DNA of 64,000 bases from Craspedostauros australis (GCA_030167865.1 JALAGF010004837.1:248001-312000), one strand, 5' to 3'. Positions 1,982-12,082 are shown, numbered from the stretch's first letter. Translations and numbers: made by a program. The notes: generated by a model from the letters alone, not told the origin.

Positions 1982-2855
1982 CGTAGGTGTTCTTTCAAAT
2001 GTCCGTGCCATCACACCTGCACCACATGGTACCATTTTCTTTCTGCAATCTTCCATCTTCCGTCTGCATCCACAAGCACACAAACATATTATATTATTCT
2101 ACCTATTATACATTCAATCAATCGACCCAATCAGACAACCAATCAACCTAACCAACACACATACAGACGCAAACTCAAACGAAGGCGTAATCGCTACATC
2201 ACATCATCTTCCTGCATCCCAACACGATGGTCTTTGGAGGAACATCTCGTGTACAATACACGATTGAACCAAGTGGGGATCACATCACCAGCACAGTCTT
2301 TCCTGTTGGCTTCCCTGACATCAGTGAGCGGATCCGGAGCCCAAACAAATCGATACAAAACTGCAACGAACCATCAGGAGGTCTGTATTTCTATTACATT
2401 TCCCTCTTCCCACAAGTATTGTTGAGTTTCAGGACAAGGCACACTCGACCAGCAAGGATCGAAGGCAAATGTCTTACTCTATGTATTCTACAGTGACTAG
2501 TTCCTTCTCAACTGCATTTCCATCAGTGTACCATACCATGCAGTACGACCTATGCCCGTAGTAGATGTGTACCATACTATTGCATTTAGAAGGTAACGCT
2601 GTGATGTTGCGCGAGCAATGGCTACACATAACGGTGCAGTAGTAGAGGCCGCGAAGGTCACGAGCACTCGTACCCAGCAAGGCACGGGAATTCCGTTGAA
2701 ACTGACACTCGATCGCACTTGACCAAGACGACCACTCTAGAAACGCAATCACGATTCGACTACAGCGACCAATATGCACAACCAGCAGAATGATATATAA
2801 CGTCTATAACCGCAATTATTTTAAAATCCGAACACCCGGCCAATGGCAAATAAAC

Positions 2856-3065
2856 GTTGAAACTATCACTGATCTGTTGAAACTAATGACGAAACGTTGA
2901 AACTAATGAAGAACCGTTGAAACTAATGAAGAAACGTTGAAACTAATGAAGAAACGTTGAAACTANNNNNGAAACGTTGAAACTAATGAAGAAACGTTGA
3001 AACTATCGGCGAGGTGTTGAAACTATCGGCGAGGTGTTGAAACTAATAGAGAGCCGTTGAGAGCA
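2856..3065 (+). repeat. Array 1: GTTGAAACTA + 10 variable nt, 20-bp period, 10 copies plus 1 degenerate
   Basis: Motif starts at 2856, 2876 ... 3036, with degenerate GTTGAGAGCA at 3056. Linkers: TCACTGATCT, ATGACGAAAC, ATGAAGAACC, ATGAAGAAAC (repeated), TCGGCGAGGT x2, ATAGAGAGCC. Contains a 5-N gap. Confidence 0.95.
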
Positions 3066-3066
3066 G

Positions 3067-3369
3067 TCACGATTCATTCGCGAAGCCTTGTGACACTCCA
3101 GATGAAAAATGACACACATAATTTGATCGAGGCGATGTCATCACACAACAGGGCAACGGCGGAAAAGCCACCTTTTTTTGCCATTCGCTGTTTTCGCTCC
3201 CACTGTCGCAAATGAGCCGCTCTGACAGCGCCCCCTTGCCCATGCACCAAGCTTTCCATGGCGGTTCCGTTGACATGCTTGGATCTGGAATTGGGTTGAT
3301 GGTTGTTGCAATGCCGTACATGGTATTTGACGATCCTTGCAGAGTTTTGTTTTGTTTCCCCATTGTCAT
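3067..3369 (-). CDS. Possible ~100 aa ORF inside the TIR element, unknown function
   Basis: ATG at 3369 in a CAACAACATG context like other genes in the window; open to the stop at 3067, next to array 1. No recognisable domain. Confidence 0.2.
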   Translation of the reverse strand: MTMGKQNKTLQGSSNTMYGIATTINPIPDPSMSTEPPWKAWCMGKGALSERLICDSGSENSEWQKKVAFPPLPCCVMTSPRSNYVCHFSSGVSQGFANES

Positions 3370-3523
3370 GTTGTTGTGTTGGGTGTCTTGGTGACAGTCT
3401 TTTCTTGGTGTCAGGATGCGGACGAAAGCCGAAACCAGTGATGTCACTTGCCACGGATTGGCCCCGCAACCAACCGATGCTCTCAGGATCATCCAAACAC
3501 GAGTCAATCACTACTGTGCAACT

Positions 3524-3733
3524 GTTGAAACTATTGCTGACTTGTTGAAACTAATCAAGAACCGTTGAAACTAACACCGACTTGTTGAAACTAATCAAGA
3601 ACCNNNNNNNNNNNNNNNNNNNNNNNNNNNNNNNNNNNNNNNNNTTGAAACTAACGCCGACTTGTTGAAACTAATCAAGAACCGTTGAAACTAACCCCGA
3701 CTTGTTGAAACTAATAGAGAATCGTTGAAACTA
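3524..3733 (+). repeat. Array 2: GTTGAAACTA + 10 variable nt, 20-bp period with 40-bp higher-order alternation
   Basis: Motif at 3524, 3544, 3564, 3584, [N gap 3604-3644], 3644, 3664, 3684, 3704, 3724. Linkers alternate ATCAAGAACC and ACNCCGACTT. Same orientation as array 1. Confidence 0.95.
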
Positions 3734-4327
3734 GTTGGTCGCTAAATAATCGCCATAACGTATATTTAACGTTTATATGACACCTTCATTGTTGTTCGTG
3801 TGGCCGAATCGGCACGAGCATGTGTCCGGTGACGCACGATTGCATCCGGGACTGCTGGTTTATCTCTGAGTACCAGTTTCAACGAAATTCCCGTGCCTTG
3901 CAGGTAGAGCGTTCTCCTCTATTCTAACTACACCAAACTCTACTAGTCTGCCGAGTACTACTGATCAGTAAAATCCAGTTTTCTGTTTCCAGGGACTTGA
4001 ATCGCCCAATTGACAACGATAAAAACGCTTGCTCAACGCAAAGGACACAATTCCGCAGCCTCGCTGACCCAAACAAACACAATCATGATCACTAAGCTGA
4101 GGCACTCAAGTCTCTCTGTTGTTGATCTCTGCCCTGCGCTGCTCATCCTTCCGTCGCCCCCCTCTTCGGTTGCTTGGACACTCGATTCATCGTGCGATAC
4201 CATCATTGAGTGAGAACGAATCTCAACAGCAAGCTCTCTCAAGGACCCATCATCATCACACCGAGTCTTGCGACGCATCGATTTCACCAAAGACCGCCGT
4301 GAGCATCCAACCAAGGCAGAGGCCAAG

Positions 4328-6037
4328 ATGCGACGACAGAGCGCAACTGGAGGAGGGGCGAAGTCCGGCGCAGGCAGAACACATCAGTCATCCTCGCTCA
4401 TCAGGTGTTCACCCATCGCAGTGTTCGGAACCGGGCTCATTCTGGTTCAGATCGCCATCTTCCATGTGGGGATCCGCTTTTCAAATCAGCCTGTTGTTGG
4501 CAATGGCGCAAATGGTGCAAGTCCCTTCCTTCCTCAGCAAAAGGACTCCGCCAACCAAAACAGTCGTCGCACTGAAATGGACGCTTCATCAATCACGGGC
4601 GGAGATAGAGTGAACAAGGAACAGAGAAATCCGAGACCGCCCCTCAACTTTGCGGACGCCGATGCCGAGTTCCTCGGCTTTCCGCTGAAGTACACCGAGC
4701 GCGAGCGTGCATTCTCGACATCCCATTGCATCGGCGAGAACTACCAGAACGAAAAGGCATGGATGCAGCGATCCTGCAAGTTCTCATTCTTCTGCTTCGA
4801 TGTAACGCGGAGGGACTTTGTCATCTTCCAACCTCCCAAGGATGAGACGATCTACGAAAAGCTGGTGGACAGGCCCTTCATGGATGTCTCGCAGTCGTAC
4901 ATGAAGCGAGCGCACAATCAAACCAACACCATGTCGATCGGTGGCATCAACCAGAAATGGACGTGGAAGGAGAGCGGCATACCTCGTCTGGAATGGTCGC
5001 CGCGCATCCAGACCACGCCGCTTGATGAGATGACATCATTCTACGAACTGCCATCCAGCGTCGTGATGGCGCCCTTCCACAGCCTCAACGGGGCCAATCC
5101 GGGACACTTGGTGTGGGATGACTTCCTCCCGATCTACACGCTGCTGACGATGTTCCAGCTCGACAAAGGAAGCCATTTGCTGATGATGCGTTACGTGTTG
5201 TCGGGGGAACGAGGGCTGTGGGCATCCTGCGATTGGAGGGATGACAAGAGGGAGGCTTGCAAAGCCATGCAGAACAAGTTCCTGCCGCTCATGGTGGGAA
5301 CGGAATACGAGCACACGCTGGCATCGACAGCCGATGCCGCCGTCAAGATGAAGAACGGCAATGGCGAGCAGCCGAAGTCATCCCTCGTCTGCTCGCGTCA
5401 TGCCGTTGTCGGCATAGGCGGTCTTACCGATCACGGCACGGACAAATCGCACGGCTGGGATGAGAGGGATTACGCCACGACGCACAATCATGGCCGAGGT
5501 GGCATGCTGTACGACTTTCGCAACTTCATGCTGACGAACATCGGAGTCGATCCGCACACCAAGCTCGCCGCACCATTCCGCATCGTGTTCTCTGAAAAGT
5601 CATCCGACATTCCCAACCGCAGCGTCGACTTTCGCCAGCAAATCGAGCTGCTCAGAAACGCCTTCAATCCCAACTTCGTTTCTGTCGAATCCTACATCTT
5701 CAAGGATCTCACGTTGAAGGAGCAGATGGAGATTGCCAGTCAGACATCCATCTTCATCACGGGCTGCGGAGGAGGCTCGGTCACGGCCATGTTCCTGCCC
5801 AAGCAAGCCAGCGTGCTGATCTACTACAAGGAGACCGGTGGCGTGGTCAACAACAAGTACACGAATCTCCCAGCGCGGCTGGATTGGGATTTGTACAACA
5901 ACCTTGCCTACCTTCGCGTGCATTGGTTCCCGCGCAACACGATGGATTCGCAGGTGGATTCCGACGCGCTGCTGCTGCTCGTGAAGCATGAGCTGGATGG
6001 TATCTTGCGCGAGAACAGCTACGACTACTGGTTCTAA
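4328..6037 (+). CDS. Type II membrane glycosyltransferase, GT61-like
   Basis: N-terminal TM (IAVFGTGLILVQIAIFHVGI), NPGHLVWDDFLPIY motif, C-terminal EQMEIASQTSIFITGCGGG motif typical of GT61/DUF563; single long ORF. Confidence 0.7.
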   Translation: MRRQSATGGGAKSGAGRTHQSSSLIRCSPIAVFGTGLILVQIAIFHVGIRFSNQPVVGNGANGASPFLPQQKDSANQNSRRTEMDASSITGGDRVNKEQRNPRPPLNFADADAEFLGFPLKYTERERAFSTSHCIGENYQNEKAWMQRSCKFSFFCFDVTRRDFVIFQPPKDETIYEKLVDRPFMDVSQSYMKRAHNQTNTMSIGGINQKWTWKESGIPRLEWSPRIQTTPLDEMTSFYELPSSVVMAPFHSLNGANPGHLVWDDFLPIYTLLTMFQLDKGSHLLMMRYVLSGERGLWASCDWRDDKREACKAMQNKFLPLMVGTEYEHTLASTADAAVKMKNGNGEQPKSSLVCSRHAVVGIGGLTDHGTDKSHGWDERDYATTHNHGRGGMLYDFRNFMLTNIGVDPHTKLAAPFRIVFSEKSSDIPNRSVDFRQQIELLRNAFNPNFVSVESYIFKDLTLKEQMEIASQTSIFITGCGGGSVTAMFLPKQASVLIYYKETGGVVNNKYTNLPARLDWDLYNNLAYLRVHWFPRNTMDSQVDSDALLLLVKHELDGILRENSYDYWF

Positions 6038-7999: not shown

Positions 8000-9394
8000 T
8001 TAGGCAGCAGAAGCGCGGAAGTTGTTGGACTTTCTGCTCTTGCGCTGCTGGCGTTGCAGGTTGGCAGCCATGAGCTGCTGGATCTGCAGCATGCGGGCCT
8101 GCTGTTGCTTGTGAGCTTGGATCTCGCGCATCTGCTGGCGCAAGGCAACTGGATCGAAGTTGGCGTTGGCTGCGGACACTGGAGCCGCCACGGCGGCGGC
8201 AGACAGGTTGGCCATGGCGCTGCCCATGAGGAATGGTCGAACGGCGTTGGCGTTGTTGGCGACGCAGTTGGTGTTCTGGATGATGCGGTTGATGTCCGCG
8301 TTCTTCTCCGTGAGGATGTTGAGCAGCTGGCTTTGGATGTTCTGCTGCGATGGCAGGGAGGCTCCCTGGTTGGCAGCAAGCGAGTTCTGCTGCTGCTGCT
8401 TTTGCTGCTGCAACTGGGACTGCTTGAGCTGCTCCAGCTGCTGCTGCTGCTTCATGAAGAGCAGCTGGCGTTCCACCAGCATGCGAGTCTGGCGGTCCAT
8501 GCCCTGTCCTGCGAGGTAGAGCTGCATGATGTCCATGGAACCGCCGGTGGAGAGCTTCTGCTCGAGCATCTTCTGTTCCTGGAAGAGCGGGTTGATGGCA
8601 GGCGCGGTTGCTGGGATGTTGTACTTGTTGGCGTTGGCGTTGTTGTTCGCGTTGTTGCTGCTGATGCTGGCGTTGTTGACGGTCTCGCTGTCGGATGGAA
8701 CGTTCTTTGCGACGTTGGCGGTTCCAGCAGTGTTGGCGTTCATGAGTGCCGATGCTGGAGAGACGGTCGGAGTGGACATGGCCATCTTGGTGCGCTGGTT
8801 CTTGCAGAACATCTGCGCAGCCAGCTGCGGCTTGTCGCGGAGGAAGAACTCGTGGTAGTAGGCGCCAAGTTCTGGCCCGCTGGAGACGCGTTGGAAGTCC
8901 CTGTTGGTGAAGAGAGTCAAAGCGCGATCATCGTTGTTGCATGGAGGTTCGAATGTGGTTGAAGGTGTGAGCTAAACAATAGGCATTGCAGAAGATGCAG
9001 GTGCAAGTAGTGCAGAAGCACGAATATGTCGCAAAGAGAAACGAAAGTTTCGCAAGCGGAGAGCACAAACGGTCCCCACCAGCAAGAAAAGAGAACGATG
9101 CGCTTGGACTCACCATCGGTTGAGCTTGCGGGTGAAGCTGCTGTACTTGGACTTGCGGGAGAAGTACTTGGGCATGACCTTCTCGGCGAAGGACTTGCGG
9201 TTGCGGATGATGAAGGCGCGGCCGTGCGGCAACCAGCAGATGGCATCGGTGTTGCTCTCGTCCGAAAGGATGTTCATGAGGCGTTGCGGGAAGATGGCCT
9301 GGCAGTCATCCTCATACTCTTCCATGTTGCTGCTTCCGCTCATGTCTTCGTTCTTGCTGTTGTTGGAGCTGCTGCTGTTCATCTTGGTGCTCAT
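8000..9394 (-). CDS. HSF: Heat shock transcription factor (HSF DNA-binding domain), exons 9394-9114 and 8900-8000
   Basis: FPQRLMNIL..AICWLPHGRAFII..KYSSFTRKLNRW|DFQRV..YYHEFFLRDKPQL, joined across a TG|gtgagt...aacag|G intron; Gln/Asn-rich C-terminus. Confidence 0.92.
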
Positions 9395-12082
9395 GGTTGC
9401 TATGGCTATCACTGTTGTTGGTGTTGTGTGATTGCTGAATGTGGTGGCTGCGGAGGAGTCGAGAGCGAGTTTGCAATTTTTTATGAGAAGAACGGTGGAG
9501 GACCACCAAATGATGTGGAAGACGTCGTTGTGCACAACACGTTGGTACGTGTTGCAACGAGGGGGCCTCGCACTGTCCAACGCGGCCCAACGCGGTCCAA
9601 CAGTGTTTCTGCGCGTGAGGGAAGTGCACGTTCCAAGGCACATCGCGCAGTTTCTGTGTAGCTGTCACACCAAACTGCGCTTCACTGCCGCGACAATTCT
9701 CCTCCCTTCGGAGCCAAAAAACACGGCGACACGTTGGGACAGACAGAGGGGGCAGAAGCGTTGCCTTGGATGTCCGCGGTTGGGCGTCTTCGTTCCCTCG
9801 CGATCGCGAATCCGACCAAGAAATGCCCTCGCTCAAAGCGGCAACCAAGCCCCACCAGCGAGTTGTCGCATCACGGCGAGAACACCCAATCAATCCCACC
9901 GTACGTATCCTCGTACGTGCCGTCAAACAGAGCTCTTTGTACGTGGTAGTTCAAAGCGCTTGTCGTTAAGTACAAAGAAATTTGTCATTTCGCGGTTTGT
10001 GTCCAACTGGATTGTCGAACCATCGAATCTTGGCCTGTTTGGCTAAGCTCTGCGCTTGCATTTTGTCCTACTGCGCTACGCAGTATCGTGTACGTATGTC
10101 GTCGACAAATCAATTTGTCTGCAAATGTACTTGCGCGCTTTGGAATTTCCCAAAGTGTCCAAGGGGCCATAAACCAACAACTATGGCTATTCTTCACAAG
10201 ATGTACTTATGCTCGATATTCGCACAACTATTTCTCCGAGATTTCGTGGCGCGAAAGCACTTGCTCCGCCCGACACAACTGTTCTTCTGTGTCCGAAAGT
10301 ACAGAACATTACGAAACCTCCTGAAGCGAGCCCAACACATAATCTGATGCGTGATACGACATGTACAAGACGTCCGCAAGACGAGAAAATAAGATCAGGG
10401 CCGTGCTACCGGCCCAGAGAATATACGGGTCTGCCATAATTCTTGGATTTCAACAGCCCACGGGCGACGTACAGACCTGCGACAGTAAGAAAGAATGTCA
10501 CACATCGTGACAAAGCTGTCAATGGCGCACTCCGATTGTCGCAACACAGCCAAGCCAAGTCGATTGACGCGACTAACACAGCACGCAAAGTTCCATAAGG
10601 ATGTGGGTTGGTGACCCTCACAACACCAACGTCTGGAGATAGCTGCGAACGCGAGGGACAAATTGACCACCACATCATCACAGCGAACACGGATGCAAGT
10701 TGCGTCTTGTGTGGTGATGCGTGCCTCAGGAAGGAAACGGCCGATGCAGACGTTGAGGTGGGTGCGGAACAGAGAAAGCACAATAATCTGTCCGACATTT
10801 ACTCTGCTTTCATCCCGGCCTCATGCTTCACAAGGTGGCCCTTGGCGAGGAGTTGTGCTCTCTTCGCTCGTTGCTCGTCCACATCATCGTCTCGGCAAGG
10901 TTTCGGCATCTCAGCTGATCCCCGAGCCGAATCATTCACTGGTTTTCGTGTTGCTCCCATGTTGCTGGTGCCAATGTTGACACGGACACCCACGTGGTTG
11001 GCGGAGGCGGTTTCGATGTTGCGAACTGTCCCCGGAAACGGCACAACCGCGAAACCGGACAAGTTGGGAAACAGAGGGGGAGCTGCGCACGGACCACGAT
11101 TAGACCATGGCCAACAAATAAGCATGACGACAACAAGGTTTCAGCGATGCCGTCGCGGGTCTCGGCTTTTCACATCTCCAGGCTCCAAACTTCCGGTAAA
11201 AGACGAGGAGACACACACAGAGATGGAGACGGAGTTGGCACAACTGGATGACATGGGAGCTTCACCAAGCCAGCAACGAACCTGCAAGTTGTCGAAATTG
11301 TCACCACGATAGCATGACGTCTCGCATCGTGTCTGATGCTTTGGGCATTTCGTGGCGGCTCTCAAGTGAATGCATGTGGCGCTCATGGTGTCTCTCTGAC
11401 ATTGACATCCATGTTCTGTTTGGGTTGGGACAGGGTGGCCCCAGAGTGATGGGAGCACAACCAAACAGACTTTTGGAGCGAAACGTCATGCCAATCCGAA
11501 TCAAGACTTCTTGTGCAATGATGTGTCTTGTTGACGATGTCTGTGTTGGTGTCGCTGCTCGGCAACTTTTGTCACCAACCCGGACTCAGGATTGGCCGGA
11601 CATCCGTGGCTCAATTGTTGTCCTTTCGTCATCCTCGTTCTCTTTCGTTTTGTCTCGATGTCCCAATCGGAAATCAGAATCGTGACGTCATCCCGCAGCT
11701 TCGTTGCGCTCGGAAGTAGTTCTTTGTGAATGTTCGATGTCCTGAAGTATTGCATGTTGTGAGCCTTCCGATGTTTGCAGAGATGTAGAAGAGGTTCAGC
11801 ATCCAAGACCCAAAAGAGATTCTCTGTCGCCGAAAGTACAGCCTTGTGGTTGGTGTCAACATCGCAACAGAAAAGGGTTGGTGGTCCTTCTCGTTCCTTC
11901 TGTCGATGCTCATGGCTGAGCTTGTTGCGGTTGGCGATGATCATGATGGCGACGACGGAAATGGAGTGCCGCTACAACCACAGCCACAGCTATAGCTATA
12001 GCTATAGCCAACACGGAAGCAACGACAACTCGCTTCATATAATACGATAGTTATTCTCGTATTCTATCCAGAATCAGCCGAC

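Follow-up and report, generated by a model that had tools for sequence, protein, structure and literature searches.

The 64,000-nucleotide stretch of Craspedostauros australis DNA studied here (GCA_030167865.1, JALAGF010004837.1:248001-312000), called the window below, carries a 1,223-bp element which is bounded by terminal inverted repeats (TIRs) and contains two arrays of 20-bp units that lie on the same strand. This element is a shortened, still-spreading non-autonomous copy of a cut-and-paste transposon of the PHIS type (DDE_Tnp_4). Its parts are collected in Table 1, where the plus strand is that of the parent's transposase gene and positions, as throughout unless a locus is named, are those of the whole window.

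Table 1. Parts of the window element, in order along the plus strand (MITE, miniature inverted-repeat transposable element).
Feature	Position	Strand	Remarks
Non-autonomous element, whole, 1,223 bp	2678..3900	+	internal-deletion derivative of a ~7.5-kb subfamily A parent
Left target-site duplication CAG	2675..2677	+	direct reading; CWG flanks of the family; empty site
Left TIR	2678..2710	+	27-bp core 2678-2704 holds inward-pointing GTTGAAAC
Left TAAC[GC] pair	2798..2815	+	copies start at 2798 and 2807, 9 bp apart
Left array	2856..3045	+	ten 20-bp units with inward-pointing core TGAAACTA; includes 5 N (2966-2970)
Deletion junction	3167..3169	+	GCC microhomology; left ~490 bp of the parent joined to its right ~730 bp
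Nested MITE remnant	3192..3411		strand not assigned; 81% identical to a separate 1.5-kb TA-flanked MITE
Right array	3524..3733	+	9 visible 20-bp units, 41-N gap at 3604-3644; on the strand of the left array, hence outward
Right TAACG pair	3756..3775	+	copies start at 3756 and 3767; on the strand of the left pair; between array and TIR
Right TIR	3868..3900	-	inverted match to left TIR
Right target-site duplication CAG	3901..3903	+	direct reading

The TIRs match over 33 bp with three mismatches and over their 27-bp core with a single one. Ten copies of the motif GTTGAAACTA lie in the left array and nine in the right one, 18 of them exact and one clipped by N, all on the plus strand and in 20-bp register within each block; the only matches outside the arrays are the two TIR copies (2695 on the plus and 3874 on the minus strand). 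Allowing at most one mismatch, the window holds 21 matches, TIR copies included, where 2.18 are expected, and the largest count in a shuffle control was 6, with 0 of 100 shuffles reaching 21. A first-pass annotation made from the sequence alone had described the 33-bp TIRs, the CAG duplication on both flanks, the co-orientation of the two blocks, their distances from the ends (178 and 167 bp) and the motif inside each TIR, all of which stand as given. Its figure of about 21 copies at 20-bp spacing is right for the spacing, but 19 units are visible and 21 are reached only if the 41-N gap hides two. The TAAC[GC] motif and the deletion junction are new relative to that annotation.

Searching the species' own assembly (65.9 Mb in 6,734 contigs) with the element gave 62 DNA matches, and a degenerate TIR pattern matched 99 times genome-wide, with 0 matches for the reversed control. 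The flanks are present for 95 of the 97 distinct ends retrieved and comprise 47 CTG, 42 CAG and six other triplets, that is, CWG (W = A or T) on 89 of 95; positions further out are unbiased. Thirteen paired elements were examined, two of which represent one insertion while one is without flanks, and the CWG duplications match in 10 of the remaining 11. A paralogous empty site was also found: a D-type element, whose two ends lie on separate contigs, sits inside an E-type element between two CTG triplets, and uninterrupted E copies carry a single CTG. For the window insertion itself the genome search gave no empty allele, the left flank matching its own contig only.

The junction at 3167-3169 also occurs at two other loci with other flanks (window, L002 and L008, compared with L053, L055 and L056), and because an identical deletion junction stands at three loci with different flanks, the deleted form has itself moved. 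The left 178 bp of the window element show 0 differences from another junction-bearing insertion with a different flank. A microhomology deletion took out the coding core of the parent, and the shortened form was then mobilised in trans, with C(A/T)G sites as its targets. The first-pass annotation had regarded the element as a non-autonomous member of a mobile TIR family, and had proposed tabulating target-site duplications (TSDs), looking for empty sites and searching for longer copies with the same ends; this view is borne out by the 99 ends, the conserved TSD, the paralogous empty site, the three-locus junction and a ~7.5-kb parent with an intact DDE_Tnp_4 gene, and the element is not single-copy. 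At one locus (L210:3559-3640 and 9560-9726; G000:C5614) three TIR starts stand in tandem at 27-bp spacing, and the left TIR of a ~190-bp subfamily A mini-element without arrays has a C-type element at its CTG; the family TIR itself, as seen there, contains the target triplet of the family.

The parent was recovered from four contigs, one pair continuing from the left end and one from the right, and all run into a common core of 5,095 bp that is 100% identical in all four. This core is an assembly-collapsed repeat, so that left and right ends are unpaired, and the implied length of the parent is 7,479-7,570 bp. It encodes a transposase and three extra genes without a Pfam family, the open reading frames (ORFs) ORF2, ORF3 and ORF4. 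The transposase gene is split by a GC-AG intron, and its second exon matches DDE_Tnp_4 (PF13359, E = 8.6e-16, above the cut-off), a profile that is matched by 19 of 24 aligned transposase members; a weak IS5_4 match is present in 10 of the 24. The catalytic triad D22, D98 and E130 is kept across 67 aligned transposase sequences. Eighty longer transposase homologues are up to 57% identical, and all of those named by organism come from Nitzschia, which points to a diatom host. Between subfamilies A and B the ratio of nonsynonymous to synonymous substitution (dN/dS) is 0.05 for the transposase, 0.09 for ORF2, 0.15-0.19 for ORF3 and 0.52 for ORF4, which at the level of sequence comparison shows all four parent ORFs to be under purifying selection. 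No Rep- or TnpB/Fanzor-like ORF was recognised among the parent ORFs, and the parallel to iterons drawn in the first-pass annotation is left as a description. Profile searches with the transposase, ORF2, ORF3-N and ORF3-C against PDB sequences gave nothing significant, and no relative was found in plasmids or viral contigs. Upstream of the transposase core (L053:850-1750) lies a long degenerate GC-rich repeat of ~57-60-bp units, open in several frames and unequal in length in the two parent copies; a low-complexity N-terminus may be encoded by it. Three complete elements of 4.1-4.8 kb (L255, L259, L260) have intact ends and none of the four ORFs.

With PHIS/Harbinger elements, as described in PMC4482050, the family shares a DDE_Tnp_4 transposase, short TIRs, a 3-bp TSD, accessory ORFs and deletion derivatives; here a transposase of DDE_Tnp_4/IS5 type goes together with 27-33-bp TIRs and a short sequence-specific TSD. 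It differs from them in having four ORFs and not two, TIRs that start with CAAG and not with G or A, accessory proteins without a Pfam match, and polar end arrays. PIF/Harbinger sensu stricto has a TWA TSD, whereas 0 of 95 flanks are TWA here. The CWG TSD is shared with NuwaI, which the same paper describes as confined to animals, with GGG termini and one Myb/SANT ORF; the present family ends in CAAG instead, and in place of the NuwaI blocks NRK..HS and WPGS.HD (read by eye from Fig. S3 of PMC4482050) its transposases carry YSHK..G..YE and W.NGPFPA..D (consensus of 67 sequences). Since the transposase has neither Nuwa nor Pangu motifs, CWG targeting looks convergent with NuwaI, and the Harbinger lead given by the first-pass annotation is right as to the superfamily (PHIS), but the NuwaI motifs are absent. 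Pangu/Harbinger2 has in common with the family its occurrence in heterokonts and a second ORF without known motif, but its TSD is ANT, and the Pangu-type catalytic blocks are absent from the present transposases. ISL2EU is set apart by its AT TSD, a THAP domain and a YqaJ second ORF; neither THAP nor YqaJ was matched among the parent ORFs. Harbinger4_TP of Thalassiosira is likewise a diatom PHIS element with a 3-bp TSD, but has, according to PMC12730594, GGG termini, a TNA-type TSD, a length of ~3.7 kb and long mirrored ends.

In a transposase tree of 49 rows, built without labelled reference rows, the subfamilies whose transposase is known (A, B, the C types and E) form one clade (100/100) inside a larger group; three Pangu-type transposases of this genome, recognised as such by their motifs, lie far from that group, with branches of 4.2 + 2.1 changes per column in between. 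Such Pangu-type motifs are found in a second, abundant PHIS group of this genome (L288-L310, L317; G000) with intronless ORFs of 420-480 amino acids. As judged from sequence, the family works like a PHIS/Harbinger element yet belongs to none of the PHIS groups tested, NuwaI and Pangu being set apart by motifs and descriptions. In the literature searched, which took in passages of the survey of PHIS lineages by Kojima (PMC12730594) and of the account of diatom Harbingers in PMC2806351 but neither subscription journals nor Repbase Reports, no description was found of this lineage or of arrays lying on one strand at both ends. What is new, in comparison with the published descriptions covered, is the set of four genes together with the polar ends.

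ORF2 is a protein of 157 amino acids with 595 relatives at the 50% cluster level in an exhaustive search; word-index homologue searches with ORF2 and ORF3 gave no matches, and no Myb/SANT/MADF family is among the matches listed for 110 ORF2 or 22 ORF3-N sequences. Its predicted structure comprises two tandem three-helix domains (predicted local distance difference test, pLDDT, 93.7). Many of the top structural matches are homeodomain, Myb or GARP DNA-binding domains with Z values up to 6.2, and FF domains score equally high; over ORF2 and ORF3 together, the homeodomain/Myb-type fold matches lie at a Z of about 5-6. The ESM Atlas gave weak FF-domain leads for ORF2 (up to 0.81) and nothing for ORF3, and with Foldseek neither model had a match at E ≤ 0.001. 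Subfamilies A, B, C and E hardly differ in the predicted recognition helices of ORF2. A complex prediction with two transposase exons and ORF2, in which alignments were not used, scored 0.00 and is counted neither way.

The 370-residue ORF3 was modelled (pLDDT 59, 7 sequences) with a helical domain at the N-terminus that a disordered linker connects to a beta-sandwich. Small heat-shock protein (sHSP)/CS chains make up about half of its 50 best structural matches and winged-helix regulators most of the rest; the best sHSP/CS matches reach Z 7.8 (root-mean-square deviation, rmsd, 5.2 over 111 aligned residues) and Z 7.1 (rmsd 2.7 over 80). Sequence searches gave no support for an alpha-crystallin/CS or a winged-helix assignment. 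With moderate confidence the model can be read as a helical domain followed by an alpha-crystallin-like domain. ORF4 evolves fast, and one short motif of it is also present in two metagenome loci.

Among 80 mostly short metagenome transposase loci, 26 contain ORF2 and 14 ORF3-N, and the two genes are head-to-head in 11 of the 12 loci which hold both. We rejected the idea that ORF3 is limited to the family with same-strand arrays, because iterated profiles find it clade-wide, including in elements with mirrored ends. In some Nitzschia inconspicua gene models (P0056, P0058, P0060, P0062) ORF2 segments appear fused to a transposase; these are probably mis-spliced models. Some ORF2 relatives (L094:2391-3164, minus strand; P0081 and others) have three helical repeats, and one longer protein has six matched stretches. 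Three loci (L221, L222, L223; C5779, C4927, C5436) carry ORF2 homologues, in tandem in L221, and ORF3 homologues with no transposase in the stretches examined, one of them near a tRNA-like sequence; they could represent another element type or captured genes.

The ends of the family follow one layout in five subfamilies: the TIR, a TAAC[GC] block and then, ~170-185 bp in, an array of units with the centre TGAAASTA (S = G or C). The order of the blocks is mirrored between the two ends, while every internal motif stands on one strand. Of 97 ends, 43 have the array pointing inward (one being misassigned through a nested insertion), 42 outward, and 12 are unclassified, seven because they are cut by contig ends and five because they break off at or before the array. 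Where it is readable, the first unit begins at offset 180-185 on the left and 171-176 on the right. In each of the ten distinct complete elements that have two separate arrays, a 6,361-bp coding element among them, both arrays lie on one strand, and two further complete elements have a single fused or gapped array. Array units thus occur in 12 of 12 distinct complete elements, and their retention in non-coding ones is as expected of cis-acting sites. The unit centre is constant over 151 units from nine elements, in part by construction as units were picked on it; ahead of it stand bases that change with the subfamily (GT, AA, GA, GG/AC), and the other half of the unit is variable. TAAC[GC] is always located between TIR and array and occurs on the array strand 17 times at left and 22 times at right ends, as against two and two on the other strand; the left copies lie at offsets 119-132 in all nine elements examined, one of which has a single copy. 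TGAAAC or a close variant is found in every TIR at offsets 19-25.

Between A and C, synonymous divergence has reached saturation or comes close to it (pS 0.71-0.86), and because the end layout is kept despite this we take it to be under selection. No single duplication, direct or inverted, yields a layout in which the block order is mirrored and the strand of each motif kept. Left and right arrays agree at the variable positions to 0.99 in B, 0.94 in C3, 0.92 in E, 0.62 in A and 0.60 in C, and those of B or E agree with other subfamilies to 0.21-0.62. The number of units per array varies from 5 to 13, and the arrays of subfamily E share a 40-bp higher-order unit. In elements of 438 bp (L256:243-680, G000:C4754) and 612 bp (L047:1501-2112) one array is fused in register from left and right units, which in the 438-bp case suggests recombination between direct repeats, like the formation of solo long terminal repeats, or possibly assembly collapse. 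The CpG observed/expected ratio is 1.3-1.6 in end spacers and arrays compared with 0.73 in the element interior; across codon positions 3 and 1 the element ORFs have 44 CpG where 73.6 are expected, and two host ORFs 110 where 111.6 are expected. A spacer of nucleosome length (146-151 bp on the left) was noted but given no weight, as the right side has only 130-134 bp. A promoter role of the arrays is disfavoured, since the right array is downstream of all genes and non-coding copies retain both arrays.

In the reading that we consider probable, the arrays and the TAAC[GC] blocks act in cis as sites on which ORF2 and/or ORF3 dock to assist the transposase in end pairing. One or both proteins would load on these sites at each end, and the transposase, bound at the 27-bp TIR cores, would then be helped to pair and cut the ends. 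TAAC[GC] resembles the consensus of Myb sites. The model follows the action of a Myb-like partner on subterminal motifs of zebrafish Harbinger3_DR, whose Myb-like protein binds a subterminal 9-bp motif according to PMC9710019 and bioRxiv 10.64898/2026.05.26.728016. The working model of an accessory DNA-binding protein that recognises repeated subterminal motifs is common to both systems, but the present family has two candidate partners, two directional motif classes and about ten same-strand units per end at a 20-bp period. The internal motifs face into the element at the left end and out of it at the right end, which makes the two ends non-equivalent. Asymmetric transposon ends are known from Mu and Tn7. 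With the two ends aligned next to each other in a paired complex, one array would be antiparallel to the other, and a two-fold bridging protein would favour left-right pairs, a geometric argument that we regard as evenly balanced. It is quite unlikely that all of the following holds together: an undescribed four-gene diatom PHIS lineage in which an element-encoded protein with DNA-binding and alpha-crystallin folds would polymerise on the 20-bp arrays and zip the ends antiparallel, the motif orientation alone both enforcing left-right selection and shielding the ends from CG methylation. Among the papers searched, none describes such a code of polarity for eukaryotic transposons of the cut-and-paste kind.

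Several observations weigh against docking. The fold matches of both proteins fall in the tool's range for common arrangements; those of ORF2 (Z ≤ 6.2) have FF domains as high as homeodomains, and those of ORF3 (Z ≤ 7.8) come from a pLDDT 59 model of 7 sequences. Array-less ends exist, namely the ~190-bp mini-element and the five of 97 ends that break at or before the array, although they may have been damaged after insertion. Since the subfamilies descend from a common ancestor, they do not count as independent cases of the layout. Finally, relatives with the same ORF2/ORF3 genes (L219, L220, L096, L218) have mirrored or palindromic end repeats, so that the wider clade can do without same-strand arrays. 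Three of these are from the same genome (L219, C863; L220, C6630; L218, C3155), and their ends are 270-450-bp near-perfect inverted, CATCCAT-rich, or have, ~165 bp inside the terminus, a 29-bp palindromic array; L219 and L220 show the long mirrored ends, and L096, L218 and L073 mirrored or palindromic motifs. Inward TGAAA-type arrays with a period of 15, 21 or 30 are present in L069, L081, L088 and L090, the last with a CAAG-type end preceded by CTG. The period of two helical turns proposed in the first-pass annotation therefore fits the 20-bp arrays of the window but was rejected as a clade-wide rule, the periods of relatives being 15, 21, 29 and 30 bp. Same-strand arrays at both ends are shown in this genome only, the relatives with TGAAA arrays being known by one end.

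The first alternative to docking, with which it is compatible, would be anti-silencing as by VANC: an accessory protein, most plausibly ORF3, would bind the arrays and keep the ends unmethylated or accessible, its alpha-crystallin-like domain could oligomerise or recruit chromatin factors, and the orientation would serve the footprint of the protein and not pairing. Like the VANDAL elements of Arabidopsis (Mutator-like elements), the family has element-borne tandem arrays with short constant motifs changing between subfamilies, and extra proteins; the transposase superfamily is a different one, the arrays lie here at a fixed distance from both termini, and anti-silencing is hypothetical in the diatom. 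According to PMC10398659, VANC targets are tandem repeats which evolve synchronously, and according to PMC5339849 the alpha-crystallin proteins IDM2 and IDM3 act with the Harbinger-derived HDP1 and HDP2 in demethylation. That the ends escaped the CpG loss of the interior, that array cores differ by subfamily and that in B, C3 and E the arrays of the two ends have been homogenised (0.92-0.99) would fit such a role. Yet homogenisation is weak in A and C, the constant TGAAASTA centre and the near-identical ORF2 recognition helices are unlike the rapid specificity turnover of VANC, the fixed offsets fit a geometric role, and CpG retention, an indirect measure taken from CpG counts, could stem from selection on CpG-containing sites. 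We hold anti-silencing to be unlikely.

CACTA, hAT and P elements are established examples of transposase binding at subterminal sites, and the transposase of the present family could itself bind the arrays through an N-terminal helical domain, the accessory ORFs doing something else. The centre of the array motif in every TIR speaks for this, but the motifs of TIR and array do not change together: in subfamily B the TIR has GCTGAAAC and the array GTTGAAAG, in subfamily D they have GCCGAAAG and GATGAAAG. Moreover, in the tested PIF/Harbinger systems DNA binding is shown only for the Myb-like partner (PMC9710019), and binding by the transposase alone appears decidedly doubtful. That the arrays are neutral minisatellites, which originated a single time, spread to the other end by copying and became homogenised by gene conversion so that co-orientation is historical, would agree with the variable positions and even the 40-bp unit shared by left and right arrays, with the changing unit numbers and with the direct-repeat recombination suggested by the 438-bp element, but is very improbable as period, offsets and core outlast the near-saturation of synonymous sites and the mirrored TAAC[GC]-array order with kept strand fits neither direct nor inverted block duplication.

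The use of accessory proteins by PIF/Harbinger-type transposons is understood for very few elements. The lineage offers three new accessory families, one with more than 590 sequence clusters and no Pfam entry, and its regular, naturally varied candidate binding sites in five subfamilies make the assignment of protein to motif and the polarity of the ends directly testable. It also offers a function for recurrent unannotated diatom ORFs, some of them apparently transposase-fused in Nitzschia models. CWG targeting apparently arose separately from NuwaI, and the element, being recently active and having a GC-rich target of 3 bp, could be developed into a tagging tool native to diatoms.

The MITE whose remnant lies in the window element is known as a separate non-coding element of 1,530 bp (L065:686-2215) with TA flanks and ~55-bp TIRs that occurs in many copies; the right part of subfamilies A and B contains a nested old copy of it, truncated and ~80% identical. 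The insertion in the window lies ~310 bp upstream of a 607-codon frame (4214-6037, plus strand) with a weak glycosyltransferase-61 match (E = 2e-5), and an HSF-domain gene is found nearby on the minus strand (~8000-9664).
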